The notes under the pieces: generated by a model | Database searches by the model: none | Seen by the model: only the letters and a program-made list of their open reading frames with translations | Told to the model about the DNA's origin: nothing | In this document: positions 2,974 to 63,856 of the stretch, piece after piece | Layout of the letters: the number at the start of each line of letters is the position of its first letter | Numbering within the stretch: the stretch's first letter is position 1 | Translations under genes and position numbers: made by a program | Origin: Octopus vulgaris | Lineage: Eukaryota | DNA: 64,000 bases | Direction of reading: 5' to 3' | NCBI GenBank assembly: GCA_951406725.2 | Contig: OX597826.1 | Coordinates: 40,734,001-40,798,000, forward strand

Positions 2974-4530
2974 ATGGAGAAATTACCTACTGACATATCA
3001 CTGAAAGACATTCTGGTCCAACACAGGAAGGACTTTATGAAAGACCTTATTACTAAGACTTTCGCATTCATACATAGAATTCGTTGGATCACTTTTCATC
3101 ATGAAAGGGATATTGTTAAATAAGGAAACTTTCTTAATGAAGATTTTGAAATTTATAAGAAATTCAAAACCAGAAAATTTCCACCTCCTAACCGTCATTT
3201 GAAGGCTTTTGAGAAGGATATATGGAACATCGTCAAGAATACCAAGTTTGTCAAATATCCCCTTAGAGGGAATGAACACCTGTTGAAAATGAAGGCTCTA
3301 GTATGTGAACTAAAAAAAAATAAGAGCAAAAAGGGAATTATTGTACCTTCGGTCAAAACTGGTAATTTATATCGTTTGGATATTCATAGATATCATGAAT
3401 TAATGGAAAATGAAATTACTCCTAACTATAAAGTAGTAAGTAAAAATGTATTAAGATCTATTAACTTAGAAGCTAAAAAAATTATGAGTGATTTTGATCT
3501 TGAAGACAGAACTGAGCCTTTTGTGCCTAGAAAGCCCAAAATCGTTTTGAAAGATCATAAAGATAACTTTTTCTCCAACCCTAAAGTTAGATTAATTTAC
3601 CCAGGCAGTTCCGACCTGGGTAGATTAAGCAAAATTATTCTAGACAAGTATATACCTAAACTTAAAGAAATATTAAAGCTAGATATCTGGTCCAATAGCC
3701 AGGAAGCCATTAATAGGTTTGATAAATTAGATAATAAAAATAGAGGTAAATTCATTCAGTTCGATATTAATAATTATTACTCTTCAGTTAATCCAATTGT
3801 GCTAAATGGTGCACTTATATTCGCTAGGGAAAATTCTAGCCTCAGCTTAAGAGAAATTAAAGTTATTTTGGAAACCAAGAAGTCCATTATTGTATTTGAT
3901 AACAAATACTGGTCCAGAAAAAATACTAATGATTCTTTTGACATAACCATGAGCTCTGCCGATTCCGCTCAGGTTACTGACTTAGTAGGTATGTACACAC
4001 TATCATTTCCATAATGAATTTCCAGACATTAAAGGTGGACTCTATAGAGATGATGCACTATTTTTGGTTAATAGTCAAACCAATAGAAAAATAAACCTAT
4101 ATATGAAAGATTTCCATAATTGTTTCAAAAGACTTGGTTTATCTCTATAGAAAATGAGCATGATTCAGTTAATTACCTGGGTATTAATCTGAACCTTGTT
4201 ACTGGCCTATACAGTCCTTATCACAAACCCAACAATAATTTAAAATATATCAACTTTCATAGTAATCATCCTAAAGCGATCACAAGAACTTTGGTTAATA
4301 ATGTTTCGAGACGTGTTTCTCATATATCCTCTGATGAGGAAATCTTTATTAATATTGCCGAATATTATAATGATGCTCTTCAAAAAGCAGGATACTGGAA
4401 TAGAATAGTATATTGTAATAAGAATGGGAACTGCAATAAATCTTATCATAATAAGGGAAAATTGATTGATAACGAAGTTAGTGGATCTAATAGTAAAAAT
4501 GTATCCAATTTATTCGTAAGTAGTAATGAC
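2974..4530 (+). pseudogene. Penelope-like retroelement reverse transcriptase, disrupted (stop at 3121, frameshifts near 4010 and 4120)
   Basis: Motifs SLKDI...FIHRIRW; KTGNLY; LKDHKDNFFSNPKVRLIYP; FIQFDINNYYSSV; FDITMSSADSAQVTDLVG; GLYRDDAL (4036-4060 region); thumb YHKPNNNLKYINFHSNHP...RRVSHISS...YYNDALQKAGY. No GIY-YIG domain seen. Confidence 0.85.
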
Positions 4531-4532
4531 AT

Positions 4533-4592
4533 ATTATTTACATTTGACGGGTATTTGTATCCATCTTTGTTGTTAACACAACGTTTCGGCTG
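4533..4592 (-). mobile_element. Inverted fragment of the hammerhead-bearing repeat found at 16288-16455 (3' half of the HHR plus downstream sequence)
   Basis: Reverse complement CAGCCGAAACGTTGTGTTAACAACAAAGATGGATACAAATACCCGTCAAATGTAAATAAT matches 16364-16426. Confidence 0.75.
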
Positions 4593-5310: not shown

Positions 5311-6174
5311 GTTTATTCATATCAGTCTTAATAATATTTGGTTTTATAAAGTCATCAAATCAATTACAAAAATATTAATAAGAAATCTAAGCGATAGGGA
5401 TGAAGGTGATGAGGATTAATGATATGCGTACCTTTCCCAACAACATTAGTACAATATGTGAAACTGTTTTTAATCAAGAATCGAAAACATAACGGCGGAA
5501 GTAACTTATTACGATCACGGAGCATTTTATTTAAAAAGAATAAGTAAAAAAGTAAAAAAGAATAAGTACTTGATAATATTAAGCACAATGACCATGTTTG
5601 GAGAAATTGCTAACAACTCCATGTGATTATCTGTAATTAAAATATGTGACTTTTAATGTATTTTATTTGATTAGTCTATGTTAAAGTGACTATATAATGT
5701 AAATTATTTGATTTCATACAATGTATTACAGCTAAATATTTAAGGATAGGAGAGCAGTAGGCTTGCAGAATCATTAGAGCGTCTGAGAAGAGAGCTGTTG
5801 AACAACAGTCTGACATAAAATGGGCGAAGGCGTGTTTACTGCTAAATGACAAACTTTTTGCGAAACAGTTGTAAAGAAACACAGTTTATTTTTCTGTGCG
5901 AAGAAAGTTAATGGTTTCAGAACAATACTTCAAAGACCGTAGATATAACTACATTATATATGTATCCACACTTCTATATATACGCTATGAATATTTAATA
6001 CTTAATTAATAACGTAGCATTTATTAATTAATAACGTAGTGTCTCGTCTATTTCTCGGTTTCGGAGTATTAAGCTATAGCTCCCAATAAAAGTAAAAATG
6101 TTGAATAAGAAACTAGCGTATATATGCCTTTAAGTATATGCGTATATATGTGTGTATGTTTGTATGTATGAATG

Positions 6175-6208
<34 letters not shown>

Positions 6209-6213
<5 letters not shown>

Positions 6214-7104
6214 TAAATATAAATTACAAAATGGGACAAGAACGCAAAAACACAAAGAGACGAAACAAAAAAAAAAACAGACGGGTCATTCGAAGCCTCT
6301 AATCTTCAGTCGGGAACCGGATCATCTTAGCAATTTCGGCTGATTAATTCTGATGTCGCTCCGACACGGCCAGCCCCAAAGAAAAACTAAGCTATGAGCA
6401 TTAGATTTCTTGGAAAAAGGATCGAATGTATACGAAACAAGGACAGGATGCCACACGAATATAAATACAAGAAACAAAAAATAGAAATAAAAGACAAGAA
6501 TAGTAATAACAGGACAAAACAGCGGGTGTCTTACGACTTCATACAATTTTTAACTTATCTTGGCTGTCGTATTTTGAAAAAATGCCTTTGCGGCAAACGA
6601 AGACAACAGTGTTAACATGGCAGCGGTCAAGCCGAAAAGACCAGTTTGAGCGGCAGTCACGTGAGAGGACAGAAGAGAGAGAAAGAAAAGCAGGGGGCAA
6701 GGAATCAAAGAGAGAGAGAAAGAAAGGGACAAAGGCACCAAGGGGGAGAAAGAGAGAAGGAAGGAATTAAAGAGGGGAGAAGAAACAGCGTGCCAAGGAT
6801 TGGCTTAGCAATAGAAATAATGGTGCAAAATAAGAAAGACGGAGAAATGTAAGAGAGTGGGGGAAGAATCAGAGGCAAGGAAAGAGAAAGACACAGACTA
6901 TAGAGAAAGTGTGTGTAACGAAGTCGTACAAGGTGGAATGTGCATACATAGGAGATAGGGGTACGTTATGCCGCAATAATATATGTATAGAAACTAAATA
7001 TAAATTACAAAATGGGACAAGAACGCAAAAACACACAAAGAGACGACACAAAAAAACAGACGGGTCATTCGAAGCCTCTAATCTTCAGTCGGGAACCGGA
7101 TCAT
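6209..7104 (-). mobile_element. Non-coding tandem (retrozyme/pLTR-like) element: 781-bp unit plus a ~116-bp terminal direct repeat
   Basis: 6209-6325 is repeated at 6990-7104; GA-rich block 6660-6910; flanked by TA tracts; carries a permuted HHR-like fold. Confidence 0.7.
6298..6405 (-). ncRNA. Decayed non-circularly permuted hammerhead-like ribozyme
   Basis: Minus-strand order TCTAA...GGCTG...AGCGAC-A-TCAGAA...CAGCC-GAAATTGCT...TTCCCGA-CTGAAGA-TTAGA; stem II GGCTG/CAGCC, closing helix TCTAA/TTAGA; U16.1 and stem I are mutated. Confidence 0.55.
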
Positions 7105-8109: not shown

Positions 8110-8580
8110 AGGGCGAAGGAAGAGAGGGGCGTTACAAAGACAGACATTAAGTGTAGGGTTTACATATAATGAAATGAGAGAAAAAGAATATATATTTATA
8201 CATGTATAGAAAGCATATACAGTATACAATAAGACAGAGTGGGGGAGTATACATAGCATACAATAATAAAAATAAAATAATAAAAAAAATTTTAAATAAA
8301 AAAATAATGGGTGTACGATGATAATGATGCGGCCCTCCTGATACAGGAGGACCTCTAGGGATAATCGAGGAAGCCCATCGTCCAAGATTACCCTGAACGC
8401 CAAAGGCAGGTGCCCGCTGCAATTCCTATTTTCCGAATCAGAGATTTATACTCCGATTGGTACCATCCACTCTTGTCATTTCTGCAACTTTCACCCACTT
8501 TTCAATACATTCACTTAAAGACAGCACCTCCCTCTCCATCCACACTTTCCTTTTCAAGTGAAACTTGAAAAAGTCAATGT
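8110..8580 (-). mobile_element. L1/Tx1-like LINE 3' end remnant
   Basis: Minus strand reads IDFFKFHLKRKVWMEREVLSLSECIEKWVKVAEMTRV, homologous to 43560-43725; followed by T-rich 3' UTR and (TTA)n. Confidence 0.65.
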
Positions 8581-8596
8581 TTGTGCAAATGTTTTA

Positions 8597-8818
8597 TGTG
8601 TCTGTGTTTGTCCCCCAACACCGCTTGACAATCGGTGTTGGTGTGGTTACGTCCACGTGACTTAGCTGTTAGGCAAAAGATATCGATAGAATAAATACTA
8701 GGCTATAAAAAAGTACTGAAGTCGGTTCATTCGACTAAAAAAAACAATTCTTGAAGGTTGTCCTCTAGCATGGCCGCAGTCTAATTTATGATTGAGACAA
8801 GTAAAAGCTAAAAGATAA
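8597..8818 (+). mobile_element. tRNA-derived SINE family 1, 3' half
   Basis: TGTGTTTGTCCCC...CGCTTGACAA.CG...GCATGGCCGCAGTC...ACAAGTAAAAG matches the full copy at 58434-58847. Confidence 0.8.
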
Positions 8819-9245
8819 ACACCAAAAATTCTATTGGACTTTGACAATCTAGACAGGTAGAATAATTGAACACCACAGACCAGTTATGATTGTATATGAC
8901 ATGTGAAAACAATAAATGCTTTATAACAGACGTTGCAATTCCTTGAAACCAAAACATTGCAAACAGGGAATTTCAAAATATCTCGAAATATGATGACTCA
9001 ATATAAAAGCATCAAGATTGTAGAGATGCCCAGCAACAAAAGTGAAACTTGTACTAGTTAACATTAGATGTGTGTACCTACCCTCTTCAGTTAGTATCTG
9101 TGAATAGGTACATCATATTTCAACTACAAGACAACTTTGCTCTTCAGGAACAGTAGATACTTGATGAATACCTGATCAACAACAAAAGATACGGTTATCT
9201 TTGATTCCTACTTTTTGATAGACTGTGTGAATTGCGTTATATACG

Positions 9246-11556: not shown

Positions 11557-11701
11557 TTTCAGTTTCCATCTACCAAATCCGCTCACAAGGTTTTGGTTAG
11601 CCCGTGACTAAAGTAGAAGGCACTTGCCCAAGGTGCCACGCAGTGGGACTGAACCCGGAACCATGTGGCAGGAAATGAAGCTTCTAACCACACAGCCACG
11701 C
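11557..11701 (-). mobile_element. SINE family 1, 5' half
   Basis: GTGGCTGTGTGGTTAG...GGTTCCGGGTTCAGTCCCACTGCGTGGCACC on the minus strand. Confidence 0.8.
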
Positions 11702-11974
11702 TTAAACATGTATATATATATATATATATATATATAAAACCATAAATATAACAGGTGTATAATCCCACTGGAAATATCTGCCAAAGTCTAATCCAGTCGT
11801 TCGTCAAACTGAAATCTCTCTCTATTGAATTGTGTAAGCGGTTGAGTATACCACAGATATGTTCACTCTATGTAATTCTAGTGTAGAAACAGAGTTACAT
11901 TGTGTATAACAAGATGTAAAAACTATACACGCAAATGAACACACACACACACATACACACATACACATTCTCAT

Positions 11975-16288: not shown

Positions 16289-16455
16289 TCGAAAAATACC
16301 TTATGAATGAGAACTCAGGTTCGAAATTTCCCCAAGACACCTAAAGAAGGCTTGAGGGTATATCAGCTGAAACGTTGTGTTAACAACAAACAAGACGAGG
16401 ACAAATATCCGTCGAATGTAAATAATGTACATAGTTCCTCATCTCTTAGATTTAG
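16033..16455. mobile_element. tRNA-headed, hammerhead-bearing insert with inverted partial duplication and 17-bp TSD
   Basis: TSD AACT(T/G)GTACTTAATTTA at 16016-16032 and 16456-16472; minus-strand tRNA-like head 16104-16173; CATGAACACTAACAATAAT...ATCGAAAA present in both orientations. Confidence 0.7.
16337..16380 (+). ncRNA. Decayed minimal type I hammerhead motif
   Basis: ACAC-CTAAAGA-A-GGCTTG-agggtatat-CAGCT-GAAAC-GTT-GTGT; stem I ACAC/GTGT; G5 is mutated in this copy. Confidence 0.6.
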
Positions 16456-22923: not shown

Positions 22924-23047
22924 TCACATGGTTTCGGGTTCAGTCCCATTGCGTGGCACCTTGAGCAAGTGGCTTCTGCTATAGCCTCGGGCTGACCAAA
23001 CACTTGTGAGTGGATCTGGTAGACGGAAACTGAAAGTAGCCTGTCGG

Positions 23048-23104
<57 letters not shown>

Positions 23105-23300
23105 TGACTGTGTTTGTCCCCCCACCATCGCTTGACAACCGATGTTGGTGTGTTTACGTGCCTGTAACTTAGCGATTCGGCAAAAGAGACCGATAGAATA
23201 AGTACTAGGCTTACAAAGAATAAGTCCTGAGGTCGATTTGTTCGACTAAAAATGGTTGGTGGTGCCCCAGCATGGTCACAACATTATGGCTGAATCTTAT
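22924..23300 (+). mobile_element. SINE family 1, near full length
   Basis: Matches 58434-58847; internal (TG)n. Confidence 0.85.
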
Positions 23301-23309
23301 AAAAGAAAG

Positions 23310-23550
23310 AAGCTTATATAGCGTACACGCAGCTTATATGCTCTTTCTGTATAGCTTATATATAGTTCGTATGCATAAGCTTCTATACGGCTTATAAAGA
23401 GCTTATATATGACATATATACAGCTTATATATATGCCTCATATATAGCCCATATTTATATTACAGCATACATACACCTTCTATACAGTTTATATACAGTT
23501 TCTATATACTTTATGTAGAGCTAATATACGACTTGTATACAGTTTATATA
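23310..23550. repeat. Degenerate ~11-bp minisatellite (ATATACAGCTT-like)
   Basis: Recurrent AGCTTATAT/CAGTTTATAT units. Confidence 0.7.
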
Positions 23551-40826: not shown

Positions 40827-41177
40827 TTTTGTTTTACATGAAATGGAATTGTCTTTGCTGCTTTTGCTTAGCTCTAGATCAATCACAATTTTTCAGCAGA
40901 CCAACGATCGAAAGCCTTCCAGTCGTGACCATTCATCATCGTTCATATATCCAGGAGTATATAGTTTAATGTGACATTTTTTTTCTATAAAGTAAGTTTG
41001 TAATCTGTTGGATAGATATTTGGCTCTTATTTTAAAACATGTCAAGGTTCCCAATCATTAGTTATTGATATTGTTATTTAACGGTGGGTTTTCCTTGAGC
41101 AAGTAGATATATAATCAACAGCGTTTCTTCCTTGGCCGCTGCGTTTTATTAGATGCACTGCTTATATCTTGTACGTA

Positions 41178-41422
41178 GGCGCAGGCGTGGCTGTATTGTG
41201 AGAAGCTTGCTTTTCAACCACAAGGTTCCGGGTTCAGTCCCACTGCGTGGCACTTTGGCTAAGTGTCTTCTACAATATTTTCGGGCTCACGAAAGCTTTG
41301 TGAATGAATTTGGTAGACGAAACTGAAAAAAGCCCGTCTACCATATATGGTGTTGTGGATTTCCACTTCGGCATCTGAAACTCAGTTTTATCTTGACTAT
41401 TGAGTAATGTAACATATTATTT

Positions 41423-41505
<83 letters not shown>

Positions 41506-41663
41506 TGTTTAACTTAGCGGTTCGGCAAAAGACACCGATACAAGATGTACTAGGCTTACATAGAATAAGTCCTGGGTTCGATTTCTTCGACTAAAACCCT
41601 TTAAGACGATGTTCCAGCATGGCCGCAGTCAAATGACTGAAACAAGTAAAAAAAATAAAAGAA
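41178..41663 (+). mobile_element. SINE family 1 with internal insertion
   Basis: Head 41178-41340 and tail 41505-41663 match the family. Confidence 0.8.
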
Positions 41664-46291: not shown

Positions 46292-47563
<1,272 letters not shown>

Positions 47564-49589: not shown

Positions 49590-49750
49590 CGTATATATGA
49601 ATATATATATATATATATTACACAAATATATTGCACAAATATTACAAATATATTATATATATAAACGTATATATATATATATATTTACATATATATAATA
49701 TATATATACGCGTATATATATATATGTATGTATGTATACATACATTATAT

Positions 49751-50130
49751 AGGAGTGGCTGTGTGTTAAGTAACTTGCTTATCAACCATATAATTCTGGG
49801 TTCAGTCCCACTACGTGGCACCTTGGGCAAGTGTCTTCTATTATAGCCTCTTTGGTTGACTCGAGGCTTGTGAGTGGATTTGGTAGACGGAAACTGAAAG
49901 AAGCCCGTCGTATGTGTGTGTATGTCTGTGTCTGTGTCTATGATTCCCCCCCCCCCCAACATCGCTTGACAACCGATGCCGGTGTGTTTATGTACCATAA
50001 CTTAACGGTTCGGCAAAAGGGAACGATAGAATAAGTATTAGGATTACAAAGAGTAAGTCCTGTGGTCGATTTACTCGACTAAATGGAGTGCTCCAGCATG
50101 GCTACAGTCAAATGACTGAAACAAGTAAAA
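49751..50130 (+). mobile_element. SINE family 1, full length
   Basis: Matches 58434-58847. Confidence 0.88.
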
Positions 50131-50177
50131 GTGTAAATGCATATTATACAAATATATTATATATATGTAACATATGG

Positions 50178-50690
50178 TTAGTTAGTTAGTTAGTTAGTTA
50201 ATTAATTTTTGCCTCAAAAAGCAAAAAGCAAGGCCATGTAGGGGGACATGGAGTTATGTATAGGGTAGTGTTCATGTAACGAGTTCAGGCCACTTAAGGT
50301 CAAGGGAGACTTTGAACAAAGAGGTCGTCGGCATCTTCACCATCTCATCTGGCAGCTTGTTCCACGGATCCGCAACCCGGACGGAGAAAGCCCCTCTCCT
50401 TCGATTGAGATGAAATCGTCGCAGATAGAGCTTTTCGGAATGACCCCGCAGCCGACACTCTGGAGCAGGAGTGAAGAACAGCTCTTTCGAGAGGTTACAC
50501 TTTCTGCTTATGATGTTGTGAGCGAGAATGAGATCACCACGGCGGCGGCGTTTTTCTAGAGAATAAAGGTCGAGCGTCTTCAGCCTTTCTTCATAAGACA
50601 AATTCTTGAGACCATGAACCATGCGGGTAGCCAGCTTCTGGACTCTTTCGAGATGTTGTATGTCTTTGAGGAGATAAGGAGAAGAGGCTT
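50178..50690 (-). mobile_element. CR1-clade LINE 3' end
   Basis: SPYLLKDIQHLERVQKLATRMV.GL...YEERL..LDLYSLEKRRRRGDLI...RGH...FSVRVADPWNKLP; (CTAA)n tail. Confidence 0.9.
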
Positions 50691-51009
50691 GATAATTATG
50701 AACAGGGCATATTTTAGACATTTCTCTGCAGACTGAAATTAGTAATGGACAGCGTTAGTCAATTTTCGAATCTAATTAGGTTCTCATTAGAGGCGTCCAC
50801 ATCATTCTGACAGTCTCCAAAAAAAAAAAAAAACAAGCAGCCAAACTGTTTATATACTCAACAAATGCTGCAGTCACTCTATGAAGGAATCCCAAATTTG
50901 CATGCCGAAAGTGTTTAATTCCCTATAAATACTAGCAGTCTGTCATATACAATGCATATATATATTATACATACACATGTCCATATATACGAGCAAAACT
51001 CTTAAATCG

Positions 51010-52270
51010 TCTAAATGACCAGTGAAGGATAACAAACGATCCCACCTCAAACAAACTTTGCTCGAGATCGAAAATGAACTCTAACACTCCCATGAAAAGG
51101 AGAGGGCAGAATAGGAGGCCAGGGCTGTCAAAAATATGAAGACAAACCGTAAAGACTTCTATAGGTATGCAAAATAAATCTGCTTCAGTACGGTACAAAA
51201 TAGTGTCACTATTTGAAGAAAATGGTTCACCGACTGCAGACCCGCAGCGGATCAGTTAAATAATGAATATGCAATACAAGAGTGCTTTCACCATTCCACT
51301 GGGACACTTGCAAGTAGCTATGCTTGATGAGTTCTTTGGCTCCACAGATCTACACAACAAAATGGCAATTATTGATAGCATCAACATAGAGGAAACTGCT
51401 GTGATATCAGCCATTAATGAGATGAGCTCAAACTCAGCAAGAGACCCTGATGAATTCCCAGTAATTCTCCTAAAGAAATGCAAAGGGGCTCTAGCAAGAC
51501 CACTTCAGATTCTCTTTCAGAGCTTCCTCACAACAGAGAGACTTCCCAAAGAGTTAAAGGAAGGCATAATATGCCCTATCCATAAGGGAGGTAGCAGAGC
51601 AGATGCTAAGAATCATAGACCTGTCAGCAAAGGCATGAAGCGCATTGTCAGGAAGAAACTAATTGCGTTCTTTGAAGATAATGGCTTGCTTCCTGACATT
51701 CAGCATGGCTTTCGCTCAGGAAGAAGCTGCCTTATACAGCTTTTGCAACACTATGCCTGAATGTTGAAACAATTAATGAATCGCTCAAACGTGAAAGTGA
51801 TATATTTCGACTTTGCAAAGGCCTTTGATAAGGTTGATAATGGGATGATACGTCACAAACTAAGGAAACTCGGCATTGCTGAGAAACTCGGAGAGTTGTT
51901 GCATGACTTCTTAAAAGACATATGCTAGGCTGTAGCAGCCAACGAAGCCCTCTCCACGAAGACATTAATAGAAAGTGGAGTACCTCAGGGAACTGTATTG
52001 GGGCCGCTGCTGTTCATGGTGGCTCATTCAGACATGCCATTAGTTATACAGACAGGCACACTTACTAACTATACTGACGACACAAAAGTAGTACAAGCAG
52101 TGAAGGAACCTTCTAATGCCAATCTTCTACAGAAAGACATAGATGCCATATATAAATGGGCGGAGGAGAACAACATACAATTTAATGCAGGCAAATCCCA
52201 AGCTCTTCGCTACCAGTTAACTGGTGTCCGGAAGTCACAACAACGATACTTTGGACCAAAAGAAGCCGTT
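51010..52270 (+). pseudogene. Decayed CR1/L2-group RT
   Basis: ICPIHKGGSRADAKNHRPVS; QHGFRSGRSCLIQL; DFAKAFDKV; [14 protein letters not shown]; YTDDTK. Confidence 0.88.
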
Positions 52271-52570
52271 GCACACTTGTCAACGTTTGAACGAAGCTTT
52301 TGCACATTTGTCACGGCCAAATTTCATATTGATATCATTACTGGGCGGTTTTTTTTTTTCAGTTTCTAGTAGCCCTTTCAGATCCTCATCATCTTTTGTA
52401 TATAATTTCAGATCATCCTTGTAGAGCCAGAGTGAGATGATCTTGTCAAACATTTTGCAGTCGTAATTTGTTCTACTCAGTTCGTGAGACATGGGAATGG
52501 GGGAAAGACAGAAGAGGAGAGGGGAGAGTAAATTTCCCGGGAATATTCCACGGTTTTGATGTTCTCTGAC
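52271..52570 (-). mobile_element. Dong/R4-clade RT core fragment
   Basis: RGIFPGNLLSPLLFCL...LYKDDLKLY...DINMKFGRDKCAK. Confidence 0.8.
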
Positions 52571-54239: not shown

Positions 54240-54355
54240 GATCCCACTGCGTGGGACCTTGGGCAAGTGTCTTCTACTGTAGCCTCTGGCCGACCAAACC
54301 CTTGTGAGTGGTTTTGGTAGCTGGAAGCTGAAAGAAGCCCGTCGTTTACATGTAC

Positions 54356-54405
<50 letters not shown>

Positions 54406-54552
54406 TTGTGTTTGTGTATGTGCTCTCCCACCATTTGAAAACCGGCGGTGCTGCGTTTACATCTCCATCACTCAGCGGTTCGGCATATGAGACAGATAGA
54501 ATAAGTACCAGTACTCCAGCATGACTGAAGCAAGTAAAAGATAAAAGATAAA

Positions 54553-54553
<1 letters not shown>
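54240..54553 (+). mobile_element. SINE family 1, internally deleted
   Basis: Matches family head and tail. Confidence 0.8.
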
Positions 54554-54554
<1 letters not shown>

Positions 54555-54633
<79 letters not shown>

Positions 54634-54645
54634 TGTATGTATATA

Positions 54646-54738
<93 letters not shown>

Positions 54739-58047: not shown

Positions 58048-58433
58048 ACGTACATATATTCAATACGCATATACGTACGAATATTCAAACACATACACGT
58101 CTATAACAACGTCTGTATATTTTTATTTAATGTATGTATGTGTGTATGAGTGTATGACTGTGCTTGTTGATGACTGTGTGCGTGTGTCTGCGCGCGCGCG
58201 TGTATGTAAGTGCGTGTGAGTTCATATAAATTATCGTTTACGAATTAATGATATTTATGCATTATCATAGTATAGTTTCAAATACCGATATAATGCTACA
58301 TTTACCGAGATACATATATACATATATACATGAATACATACATGCACATATTGAGATATATACATAAAATATGTATATCTATGTAATATATATAACATAC
58401 TATAATATGCACGAATGTGAAATATATATATAT

Positions 58434-58845
58434 ACTCTTTACTCTTTTACTTGTTTCAGTCATTTGACTGCGGCCATGCTGGAGCACCGCCTTTAGTCGA
58501 GCAAATCGACCCCGGGACTTATTCTTTGTAAGCCCAGTACTTATTCTATCGGTCTCTTTTTGCTGAACCGCTAAGTGACAGGGACGTAAACACACCAGCA
58601 TCGGTTGTCAAGCGATGCTAGGGGGACAAACACAGACACACAAACATACACACACACACTTATATATATATATATACATATATACGACAGGCTTCTTTCA
58701 GTTTCCGTCTACCAAATCCACTCACAAGGCATTGGTCGGCCCGGGGGCTATAGCAGAAGACACTTGCCCAAGATGCCACGCAGTGGACTGAACCCGGAAC
58801 CATGTGGTTGGTTAGCAAGCTACTTACCACACAGCCACTCCTGCG

Positions 58846-58847
<2 letters not shown>
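58434..58847 (-). mobile_element. SINE family 1, best-preserved full-length copy
   Basis: Head GGCGCAGGAGTGGCTGTGTGGTAAG...GGGTTCAGTCC (A/B boxes), central (TA/TG)n, tail GCATGGCCGCAGTCAAATGACTGAAACAAGTAAAAGAGTAAAGAG. Confidence 0.9.
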
Positions 58848-58883
<36 letters not shown>

Positions 58884-58900
58884 TGTATAAATGTACATAG

Positions 58901-58972
<72 letters not shown>

Positions 58973-62073: not shown

Positions 62074-62155
62074 TAATAAATAAAATATATGCATACATAC
62101 AAACATATATGTACGTACCGACATCTACATGTATATATACATGCATATATAAATA
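61882..62155. repeat. Direct-inverted-direct triplication
   Basis: 61911-61958 is exactly inverted at 61981-62028; 61882-61960 is repeated directly at 62074-62155 with a few substitutions. Confidence 0.85.
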
Positions 62156-62308
62156 TATATAAGTACAGGACACCACAAAAAGACGTAAAACTCAACAGAA
62201 ACGAAAACGGAAAAGCCATTTTGTTACAACAGAAGGACAGAGACGTGGAACAGGACGAAAACGGGAAAAACATTATGTACAACAGAAAAACGAGGTACAG
62301 GAAAAATT

Positions 62309-62422
62309 CCCTTCATCAGCTGTCACTAGCAGACATAGCGTGTTTCGAAGGCAAGACAGGACACGTCTGGTCATGCTAGGCCTTCCTACGAGAGAATTAA
62401 AATAAAATAACCTCGCAGAGGG
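62309..62422 (-). ncRNA. Non-circularly permuted hammerhead ribozyme candidate, copy 1 (GUC; predicted cut between 62360 and 62359)
   Basis: CCCT-[CTGCGAG..CTCGTAG]-GAAGGC-CTAGCA..CGTGT-C-CTGTC-TT-GCCTTC-GAAACACG..TGCTAG-T-GACAG-CTGATGA-AGGG; all core nucleotides intact. Confidence 0.8.
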
Positions 62423-63034
62423 GTAAAACAAGCAAGAAAAAATGTAACACAAAAAGGGACGTAACAGAGAACTGCACAATAAAATACAAGAAAAAAATAC
62501 AAAATTAAAGATATATGTACAAGAAAATACAAAACGAGAAATAAATTACAATACGAGAAATCAAAATAAACAAGAGAACAACGAAAAAGACCAACGGAAG
62601 GCCTTTGTTCTGGCAGGGACGGAAGAGGTAACTGGCGAGCGCTGGGAAACATGACCTTAGGGCCTGAAGGCAACGTACGAAAGGATTAGCAGTGACGAAA
62701 GTGAGGAGGAGTGGGAGAGAGAGAGAGACAGATAGAGGAAGACACGCGGCTGAGAGAAGGGTGAGGAAGAGGGAGAGAGAGAAAGAGAGAGGGGAAGGCA
62801 AAGCAAAGGGAGAGAATTTTCGCGTCATAATATTAAACTATAAAACAAACTGAGAGGATAGAGACGGAACGAAGTGAAAATTCGAAAAATCGAAAATTCA
62901 AACGAACCCGACGCGAGGACAGCACAAATAAACGTAGAACACAACGAGAAACGAAAACATAAAAACAAACTAGGAAACGGACTTTTTTTAACAACGAAAA
63001 AACAGAGTACAAGACAAACAATACAAGGAATATT

Positions 63035-63154
63035 CTCCTTCATCAGCTGTCCCTGGTTCGACTCAATGCGTGTTTCGAAGGTAAGGACAGAACACGATCC
63101 GGTCGAAATAGTCCTTCCTGCAAAAGAATTAAATAAAATTCTTTTGCAGAGGGG
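63035..63154 (-). ncRNA. Non-circularly permuted hammerhead ribozyme candidate, copy 2 (GUU; predicted cut between 63091 and 63090)
   Basis: CCCCT-[CTGCAAAAGAATT..AATTCTTTTGCAG]-GAAGG..TTCGAC..CGTGT-T-CTGTCC-TTA-CCTTC-GAAACACG..GTCGAA..GGACAG-CTGATGA-AGGAG. Confidence 0.8.
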
Positions 63155-63608
63155 TAAAACAAGGAAAGAAAAAAAGTGACAAGAACAGGACGTAAAAGCA
63201 ATACAAATAAAAATACAGTACACATAAAGAATAAAAACAGGACAATGAAACCAACATTGAGGGCTTTTTTTAAGCCTAGACAATGGAAAAATTCGGAGCG
63301 CAATTTAGAATCGACTTTCTAGAGACAGAAAAAGTCGATGTTGACTTGCAGAAAGCTACGAGCAAAAGAAAGATAGTAGTCCACTCAGCAGAGAGAGAGA
63401 TGAGGAGGAGTGAGAGAGAGAGAGGAAAGGAAACCAGAAAGGGTGAAAAATAAGGAGAGATACAGGTAGAGAGGAAGACAGACAGGAAGGAAAGGTCAAG
63501 TAAAGGGTTAGAGAGTGCGCGTCAATGCACATATATATGTCTATACATATATATGTGTGTGTATATGTATACGGACATTTATACACGCGCGCTCGCGCAC
63601 ACATACAC

Positions 63609-63856
63609 ACACGAGTAAGCACACAAATGCAAATCAAGAGAGAAACAAATATTACTCGAATACCTACGGTTAAGTAATATAGTTTTTTTTACTAAAGCGA
63701 CAAAAACAGCAGAAGAGTTTCACGTTTGCGTTCGTCAGACAGCCGTGATCAAGACTGGAATAAAATTTTATTCTTGATCACCACTCCGTCGAACGAGAAC
63801 GTGAAACTCTGAGTCACAGATTCTTGTGATGTTTCTGCAGCTGTAATTTTAAAAAT
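63609..63856. mobile_element. Family B pLTR-like repeat with fold-back and two opposed hammerhead halves
   Basis: 63714-63742 minus: CTGT-CTGACGA-ACG-caaa-CGT-GAAACTCT; 63783-63819 plus: CCGTCGA-ACG-agaa-CGT-GAAACTC-T-GAGT-C-ACAG; central GTGATCAAGA/TCTTGATCAC hairpin. Confidence 0.7.

Follow-up and report, generated by a model that had tools for sequence, protein, structure and literature searches.

A Penelope-like non-coding retroposon of Octopus vulgaris carries a hammerhead-like fold rearranged in four strands that probably self-cleaves

The window analyzed here, a stretch of 64,000 nucleotides from Octopus vulgaris, contains at 6209-7104 a repeat in which, according to the original prediction, a permuted hammerhead recurs with the strand order of two motifs at 62-63 kb and with different helix sequences. 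This locus raises the question of whether unrelated repeats share a genuine ribozyme architecture and whether the element was copied from a self-cleaved template. Sequence comparison identifies a real, conserved, high-copy hammerhead-like fold with new connectivity, and we consider it probable that the RNA of this non-coding Penelope-like retroposon, its core rearranged in four strands, self-cleaves at 6354/6353.

RESULTS

The repeat has the ends of a Penelope-like element

The 781-bp unit with a terminal direct repeat that had been proposed proved to be real: in a self-comparison of the window, 6198-6325 matched 6979-7104 with a period of 781 and 93% identity, which makes the repeat 11 nt longer than first stated (Table 1). 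Inspection of open reading frames (ORFs) found no coding-like frame in the 781-nt unit, and a tRNA search found no tRNA in the element, so that a tRNA origin was rejected. A 191-base query returned 4,169 first-look candidates from the genome, which measures 2.8 Gb and is rich in microsatellites; 40 of these were scored and were 92-97% identical, the window itself excepted. Among 30 fetched loci, the 3' ends were fixed and the 5' ends scattered. A 28-mer near the 3' end gave 80 exact matches, for which 75 contexts were retrieved, and the removal of five belonging to another subfamily left 70 rows. The large majority of these (58 of 70) terminated straight in a TA or CA repeat, six carried a 35-nt tail into the next unit, and five extended through a full unit, whereas inverted 5' pieces were present in L012, L017, L154, L157, and L180.

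The family thus shows partial tandems with a pseudo-LTR, a fixed 3' end, variable 5' truncation, a 30-40 nt tail, inverted 5' pieces, and a microsatellite target. The accessible text of PMC8557442 describes (TA)n targets, partial tandems, 30-40 nt tails, and inverted 5' pieces for Penelope-like elements (PLEs), and that of PMC11167929 explains the tails by internal initiation of the reverse transcriptase (RT). Judged by its ends, the 781-nt repeat is a non-autonomous Penelope-like retroposon. Four contig runs cover the element and dip near the cut, where the window copy is divergent, and these contigs may be DNA, so that we give the dip no weight; the sequence records searched that carry the element were contigs only, with no RNA record among them. 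A whole-window Rfam scan gave sub-threshold, microsatellite-driven miRNA matches among the matches listed (150 of 394).

Table 1. Features of the element at 6209-7104 and of the two related motifs in the window
Feature	Positions	Strand	Evidence or remark
5'-truncated partial-tandem retroposon copy, non-coding, Penelope-like	6209..7104	-	A 781-nt unit and 115 nt from the unit before it; 3' end runs into (TA)n
(TA)n target microsatellite at the element 3' end	6172..6208	.	Sequence
Upstream terminal repeat (pseudo-LTR)	6979..7104	-	Only 2.x, CUGAAGA, and closing strand; begins 28 nt beyond the equivalent of the cut
Strand X (6420-6416) and distal strand (6428-6422), predicted closing-helix partners of the bases after the core	6416..6428	-	79% paired in family A; 88% in B/C with double changes
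Upstream hairpin containing UCUAA	6376..6413	-	92.7% paired, 2/500 shuffles; present in the MFE fold
Strand Y, pairs with 11.x, first G with C11.1 (stem II equivalent)	6371..6375	-	Covariation
Joining helix between stems II and I, 5' strand, partner 6322-6317	6364..6369	-	81.9% paired, double change in 4/6 pairs
Block S: 16.x (6360-6356), 16.1 (6355), H17 (6354), predicted cut 6354/6353, 1.x (6353-6348)	6348..6360	-	Alignment, 5'-end pile-up
Block G: 11.x (6342-6338), GAAA (6337-6334), 15.x (6333-6329)	6329..6342	-	Covariation
2.x (6315-6310) and core CUGAAGA (6309-6303)	6303..6315	-	Terminal repeat, covariation
3' closing strand, partner of X and the distal strand, not of 11.x	6287..6300	-	Canonical stem II 16% paired
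Same architecture, family B, intact core	62289..62458	-	Alignment, descriptor
Same architecture, second B-type subfamily copy, intact core	63016..63188	-	76% identical to the 62.3 kb copy

A hammerhead core opened beside A9

Sequence comparison placed the strands in the order X, hairpin, Y, joining strand, 16.x-U-H^1.x, linker, 11.x-GAAA-15.x, joining strand, 2.x-CUGANGA, and X'. Every base of the hammerhead core is kept, but in a non-circular order, with the cleavage site first, GAAA next, and CUGANGA last (type SGC). The family has CUGANGA, GAAA, and U16.1-H17, with invariant core columns in the alignments. Among 23 representatives, U was found at 16.1 in 22, a base other than G at H17 in 22, and C at 11.1 in all. 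Stems I and III are formed around the cut as in any hammerhead, with the A15.1-U16.1 pair. The partner of 11.x is Y, and the strand that continues Y pairs with the strand before 2.x as a fourth helix. On the alignments, the fold is a type-SGC hammerhead opened between A9 and position 10.1, in which the first G of Y would replace G10.1 and X:X' together with the hairpin would close the junction beside A9.

The pair between the first G of Y and C11.1 was present in all 10 cluster representatives, which had been selected by a descriptor that required it. The spacings in these representatives are tight, at 21-28 nt from Y to the cut, 13-16 nt from the cut to GAAA, and 23-25 nt from GAAA to CUGA, as expected of one folding unit, and stem III has 4-9 bp and no short palindrome. 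Both properties speak against a ribozyme that acts between two tandem units or two RNAs, as a dimer or in trans, with a single-unit topology that is only apparent; PLE hammerheads are often dimeric (accessible text of PMC6765202) and the elements occur in partial tandems, but we hold this to be the least probable of the explanations considered.

The same strand order recurs across families that are unrelated by BLAST, including the motifs at 62-63 kb, as had been claimed. In the window copy, the strings named in the original prediction all lie on the minus strand where they had been placed, namely, GGCUG (6375-6371) with CAGCC (6342-6338), AGCGA (6360-6356) with UUGCU (6333-6329), the extension 6370-6363/6323-6316, GAAA from 6337, and CUGAAGA from 6309. 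The proposed closing helix was not borne out: UCUAA (6405-6401) and UUAGA (6302-6298) are there as text but unconserved as a pairing (62.5% paired, with 409 of 500 shuffles as high). UCUAA instead pairs inside the upstream hairpin (92.7%), and the sequence that follows the core has its partners further upstream.

Mutations had been noted in stem I and at U16.1 of the window copy, and it does have C at 16.1 (6355) and A at 1.5 (6349). In 31 aligned copies, 30 have U at 16.1 and 29 have G at 1.5, the window copy being the sole one with C16.1 and one of two with A1.5. Given C16.1, it is likely inactive, as suspected, and the descriptor, which accepts both motifs at 62-63 kb, rejects it. The family was expected to restore NUH and stem I: U16.1 and most of stem I are restored, whereas a mismatch 1.3-2.3 persists in the common stem I. 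Stem I is fully paired in L030, and five copies have an inserted G.

A CGAAUG-like word 3' of the core (alignment A1, columns 171-175) is almost invariant across family A. The two B-type copies adjoin at 62150-63520 on the minus strand; they come from separate subfamilies, with 76% identity in the motif region, and are not one tandem element. An imperfect inverted repeat of ~100 nt lies beside them at 63714-63810.

Compensatory changes support the helices

Covariation was assessed in sequence-only MAFFT alignments of 12 hand-picked representatives each for family A and for families B/C. These representatives had been picked by a descriptor that scores stems I and III, and their kinship shares changes and inflates the covariation counts, which were as follows. 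In family A, 87.3% of the cells of the four core helices were paired and 17 of 23 pairs were doubly changed, which none of 500 shuffles reached; in families B/C, the values were 83.3% and 16 of 20, reached by 0 of 500 (cells) and 1 of 500 (pairs) shuffles. Slid-register controls gave 16-50% pairing. The Y:11.x helix covaries, with Y reading GGCUG, GAAGG, GAGCA, GCCCA, GGGCA, or GACAC. The joining helix was 81.9% paired in family A and 53% in the gappier B/C alignment, and at least four of its five pairs were present in 76 of the 91 motifs that passed the descriptor; an extra helix of this kind is part of type SGC.

The closing helix X:X' is, on these alignments, the least secure helix of the fold. 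In family A, it was 79.3% paired (17 of 500 shuffles), with a covariation score not above shuffles (36 of 500). Together with the hairpin base, it was 90.7% paired in families B/C (0 of 500 shuffles), and it was present in 85 of the 91 descriptor motifs, an uncontrolled count to which we give no weight.

Canonical stem II was paired in 16% of cells in family A and in 58%, the level of shuffles, in B/C, and 10.1 paired with 11.1 in 2 of 10 representatives. The base following A9 was A in 11, U in 7, G in 4, and C in 1 of the 23 representatives. The canonical G10.1-C11.1 pair of stem II is thus lacking, as is an uninterrupted Block C (2.x-CUGANGA-10.x pairing with 11.x). Since the upstream strand Y provides the G that pairs with C11.1, we file the element as a hammerhead-like variant and not as a canonical member. 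The low pairing of canonical stem II, the presence of G after A9 in only 4 of 23, and covariation of Y:11.x through six sequences, from GGCUG to GACAC, are difficult to reconcile with an ordinary type-SGC hammerhead that would build stem II from the bases right after CUGANGA, the Y pairing being an alternative or inhibitory fold. Such a hammerhead would agree with the S-G-C order described in the available text of PMC10085705 and with the purine-rich 3' strand of family B, which partly pairs with 11.x (3-4 of 5 including G-U; 77-80% in slid registers); we judge it very improbable.

Rfam hammerhead models had no match at E ≤ 10 in 6235-6480 or 62250-63250, which is expected because the topology is new and which gives no support either. 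Nested MFE folds miss the active fold, which is doubly pseudoknotted, and the z-scores were mostly weak (-1.1, -1.7, -0.7, -3.7, and +0.9).

The core pattern is abundant in the genome

GAAA before CUGANGA matched the genome 68,166 times versus 17,328 times for the reversed pattern, much of this excess being due to a separate canonical type I family. A pattern with tighter core spacing had 32,976 raw matches versus 1,592 reversed, a forward count inflated by overlapping matches, and we estimate ~20,000 places with the core pattern, from twice the reverse count minus the control. Motif loci from the pattern lists fell into 11 clusters under 80% identity. The descriptor was passed by 91 distinct motifs, from loci that the preceding searches had enriched for the motif, and by 24 of 4,550 upstream-shuffled controls.

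Another abundant repeat, seen in L035, L045, and L215 and as fragments at 4533-4592 and 16364-16426 of the window, contains a canonical minimal type I hammerhead. The stem II of this hammerhead is GGCUG/CAGCC, as is Y:11.x of family A, and there is one extra A after the core.

The 5' ends of genomic copies accumulate at the predicted cut

The 5' ends were tabulated for 69 of the 70 rows, one duplicate L167 row having been removed; among the 69 are three inverted pieces, a local duplication, and an end clipped by the yardstick (L199). The 20 nt from -3 to +16 of the predicted cut contained 18 of the 69 starts, with ~2.5 expected, compared with 2 starts in -23 to -4 and 10 in the flanking 80 nt. 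For this peak window, which was chosen after seeing the data, the Poisson probability is 2e-10 and the step of 18 versus 2 has p = 4e-4. In this subfamily, the cut is preceded by ATAT, which resembles the target and makes 6 of the 18 junctions in the peak ambiguous.

Most of the larger sister subfamilies carry C17 and are free of the ATAT mimicry. By eye, 98 sister loci among the matches listed (100 of 762) comprised 15 starting upstream of the cut (over a span of 19 positions), 35 at +1/+2, and 48 at +3 to +12, and a second listing had seven upstream of the cut among the matches listed (100 of 706). With the anchor moved 26 nt downstream, ~82 started at +8 to +17 and 18 at +18 to +38 among the matches listed (100 of 357); because the pile-up persists with the shifted anchor, the peak is not an anchor artifact. 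A step was also present in family B, where a script could assign 27 of 29 distinct junctions, placing 8 upstream of the cut, 3 at it, and 16 downstream, or 7, 5, and 15 when L212 and L229 are read by eye as at the cut. The single copies L101 and L315 have the step at the predicted scissile bond, and L167 starts at the cut of the upstream unit.

The 5' ends of genomic copies are thus tied to the predicted cut, as the original prediction anticipated, by the tabulation in family A and by the step in family B. The 5' end of the window element (7104, equivalent to 6325) does lie 28 nt downstream of the predicted cut; at +28 it falls outside the peak and by itself says little. Since 37 of the 69 rows begin upstream of the cut, cleavage would be incomplete or reversed. 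The pile-up is, in our opinion, indirect evidence of self-cleavage. The same step could mark a transcription start in the pseudo-LTR if the fold were real but non-catalytic and served to bind the RT or set its start. PLE pseudo-LTRs contain promoters and start sites, according to the accessible portions of PMC8557442 and PMC6765202, and over half of the copies extend past the site; however, in sequence-unrelated families (A and B; L101 and L315) the step coincides with the predicted scissile bond, and the catalytic bases are constant while the helices vary, which makes this account unlikely.

The predicted cut lies ~145 nt upstream of the element 3' end. If the RNA does self-cleave there, tandem or read-through transcripts would be cleaved into cut-to-cut monomers. 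A Penelope-like RT would prime on nicked (TA)n and start inside the RNA, leaving the 35-nt tail. The 3' product of a hammerhead begins with a 5'-OH at 1.1, where the RT would run off, giving a class of copies of roughly 130-146 nt, whereas uncleaved, dimeric, or circularized templates would give longer, more-than-unit copies such as that of the window. Catalysis, cut-to-cut monomers, and circular or dimeric templates are what we infer from these data. Of the proposal that the element was copied from a self-cleaved, more-than-unit-length or circular template, the link between 5' ends and cut has stood; a circular template fits, as would a linear dimer.

Some Naiad elements appear to share the fold, and a young PLE is a candidate mobilizer

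The accessible text of PMC8557442 reports no canonical hammerhead in Naiads, only an "HHR_half_core" in eight families. In 10 of the 49 published Naiad 3' ends that we viewed in part of its supplement (about 330-420 bases each, so that misses do not mean absence), we recognized the same architecture by eye, across four phyla, namely, in Naiad_Obim, Ovul, Esco, Amil, Aacu, Anas, Naiad-3_Chem, Naiad-2_Movir, Plae, and Bfor. In Plae, X is outside the view, and in Bfor, stem I has only 2 bp. In Amil, X:X' (6 bp), the hairpin, and Y:11.x (6 bp) abut without an unpaired base, with a stem III of 12 bp and a stem I of 6 bp. Six nematode Naiads (Naiad-1, -2, and -3_Nbra, Hcon, Hpol, and Asuum) have, by eye in the same partial view, the order C-S-G with a normal stem II, which corresponds to type CSG of Eckert; Nbra-3 and Hpol are among the "HHR_half_core" cases. 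The bivalve, hemichordate, and two Clytia Naiad 3' UTRs seen there have a different recurrent conserved motif with no hammerhead core, which may be another structured or catalytic RNA.

In the octopus genome, the Naiad-type core had 333 exact pattern matches. L333 and L336 align over 1,329 bases, in a stretch that extends from a frame resembling an RT end to the motif, and L336 follows, by eye, the Naiad_Obim consensus in the part of the supplement available. The L336 peptide had no match in Pfam, Atlas, or the homologue search, and its RT identity rests on the by-eye match because these peptide searches were empty. BLAST found no similarity between the 781-nt unit and the Naiad (L336, L322), Neptune-like, or family B sequences compared, and with Naiad it has only the fold in common; with no ORF for GIY-YIG and RT and no descent by BLAST, we do not place the unit in the Naiad clade.

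Cephalopod Naiads have long been inactive, according to the available text of PMC8557442. A candidate mobilizer is a young two-frame PLE at L261:775-4682 (G000:C1:37062000-37070000), in which a 557-aa frame overlaps a 775-aa RT and GIY-YIG frame; it has many near-identical copies, and its 3' end lies in (TA)n. The CUGANGA motif is absent from its 3' region. We take this PLE to be Neptune-like from its linker motif. A word resembling CGAAUG also occurs close to its 3' end and is a possible RT recognition site. GIY-YIG fragments near motifs in L221 and L112 look like separate neighboring insertions and not, in the case of L112, like a Naiad junction, and L322, the sole Naiad 5' match (GIY-YIG E 0.0015), is broken with no motif downstream.

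The window also contains a degenerate RT-like fragment at 2980-4500 on the plus strand, presumably Penelope-type by its motifs, with a 296-aa open frame at 3124-4011 that had no Pfam match. LINE-type RT fragments were seen by eye in translations at 46296-47423 and 50275-52366, and another dispersed repeat, 70-87% identical, at 8578-8819, 11557-11736, 22925-23320, 41176-41652, 49668-50158, 54242-54666, and 58310-58934.

DISCUSSION

In the literature searched, which mostly excluded subscription papers, we found no description of the four-strand topology or of permuted hammerheads in animal PLEs. Core insertions of one or two bases are on record in the accessible text of PMC3088659, and variants with additional helices are mentioned in PMC13725137; the part of PMC10162972, cited by the latter, that was available held nothing relevant. 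Standard descriptors and Rfam models miss the four-strand fold in an animal genome, and the motif offers a direct answer to the apparent absence of hammerheads from Naiads. The 5'-end pile-up would be a genomic footprint of the end of a Penelope-type template and would bear on the role of ribozymes in retrotransposition. We lean towards the view that an active hammerhead with a fourth-strand stem II and a core opened at A9 serves Naiad-type Penelope elements in animals ranging from ctenophores to cephalopods, along with their non-coding dependants in the tens of thousands, that its cleavage products are tied by four helices, which would hold the monomer ends for circularization, and that Naiads of nematodes rely on another non-circular form (type CSG). 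If so, non-circularly permuted ribozymes would be common in animal genomes.

Comparison with known systems, for which the sources cited were accessible in part, places the motif closest in order to type SGC. Hammerheads with a non-circular permutation were described from environmental sequence in 2023, and the type SGC RNA HRIMA-1 (Eckert 2023, PMC10085705) has, like the motif here, the order S-G-C, the full core, a short linker from stem I to stem II, and an additional helix that connects these two stems on their other sides. In SGC, the 5' strand of stem II directly follows CUGANGA (Block C, assumed to be uninterrupted), whereas here this strand lies on the 5' side instead, with a closing helix and a hairpin at A9. 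The six-order scheme assumes that CUGANGA is joined to a stem II strand, an assumption that the four-strand fold breaks. The SGC RNAs came from metatranscriptomes, none being in the genomes of known organisms, whereas the present motif is high-copy in an animal genome.

The 781-nt unit resembles Naiad (Craig et al. 2021, PMC8557442) in (TA)n targeting, partial tandems, tails, and inverted 5' pieces, and the 3' ends of Naiad_Obim and Naiad_Ovul have the same motif; it differs in having no ORF and no BLAST similarity outside the fold. The minimal type I hammerheads of PLEs (PMC6765202) likewise lie near the element 3' end, but they are circularly permuted and dimer-dependent, with a palindromic tiny stem III, of which none was seen here.

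Non-LTR retrozymes (PMC7229834, bioRxiv 10.64898/2026.07.22.740005) are also PLE-linked non-coding units with one hammerhead each, and for them, too, cut-to-cut monomers and circular RNA templates have been proposed. A retrozyme has a type I hammerhead in each tandem unit, of about 230-350 bp, whereas the order here is S-G-C and the unit, known from contigs alone, measures 781 nt, is mostly dispersed and 5'-truncated, and carries a pseudoknotted, permuted core.
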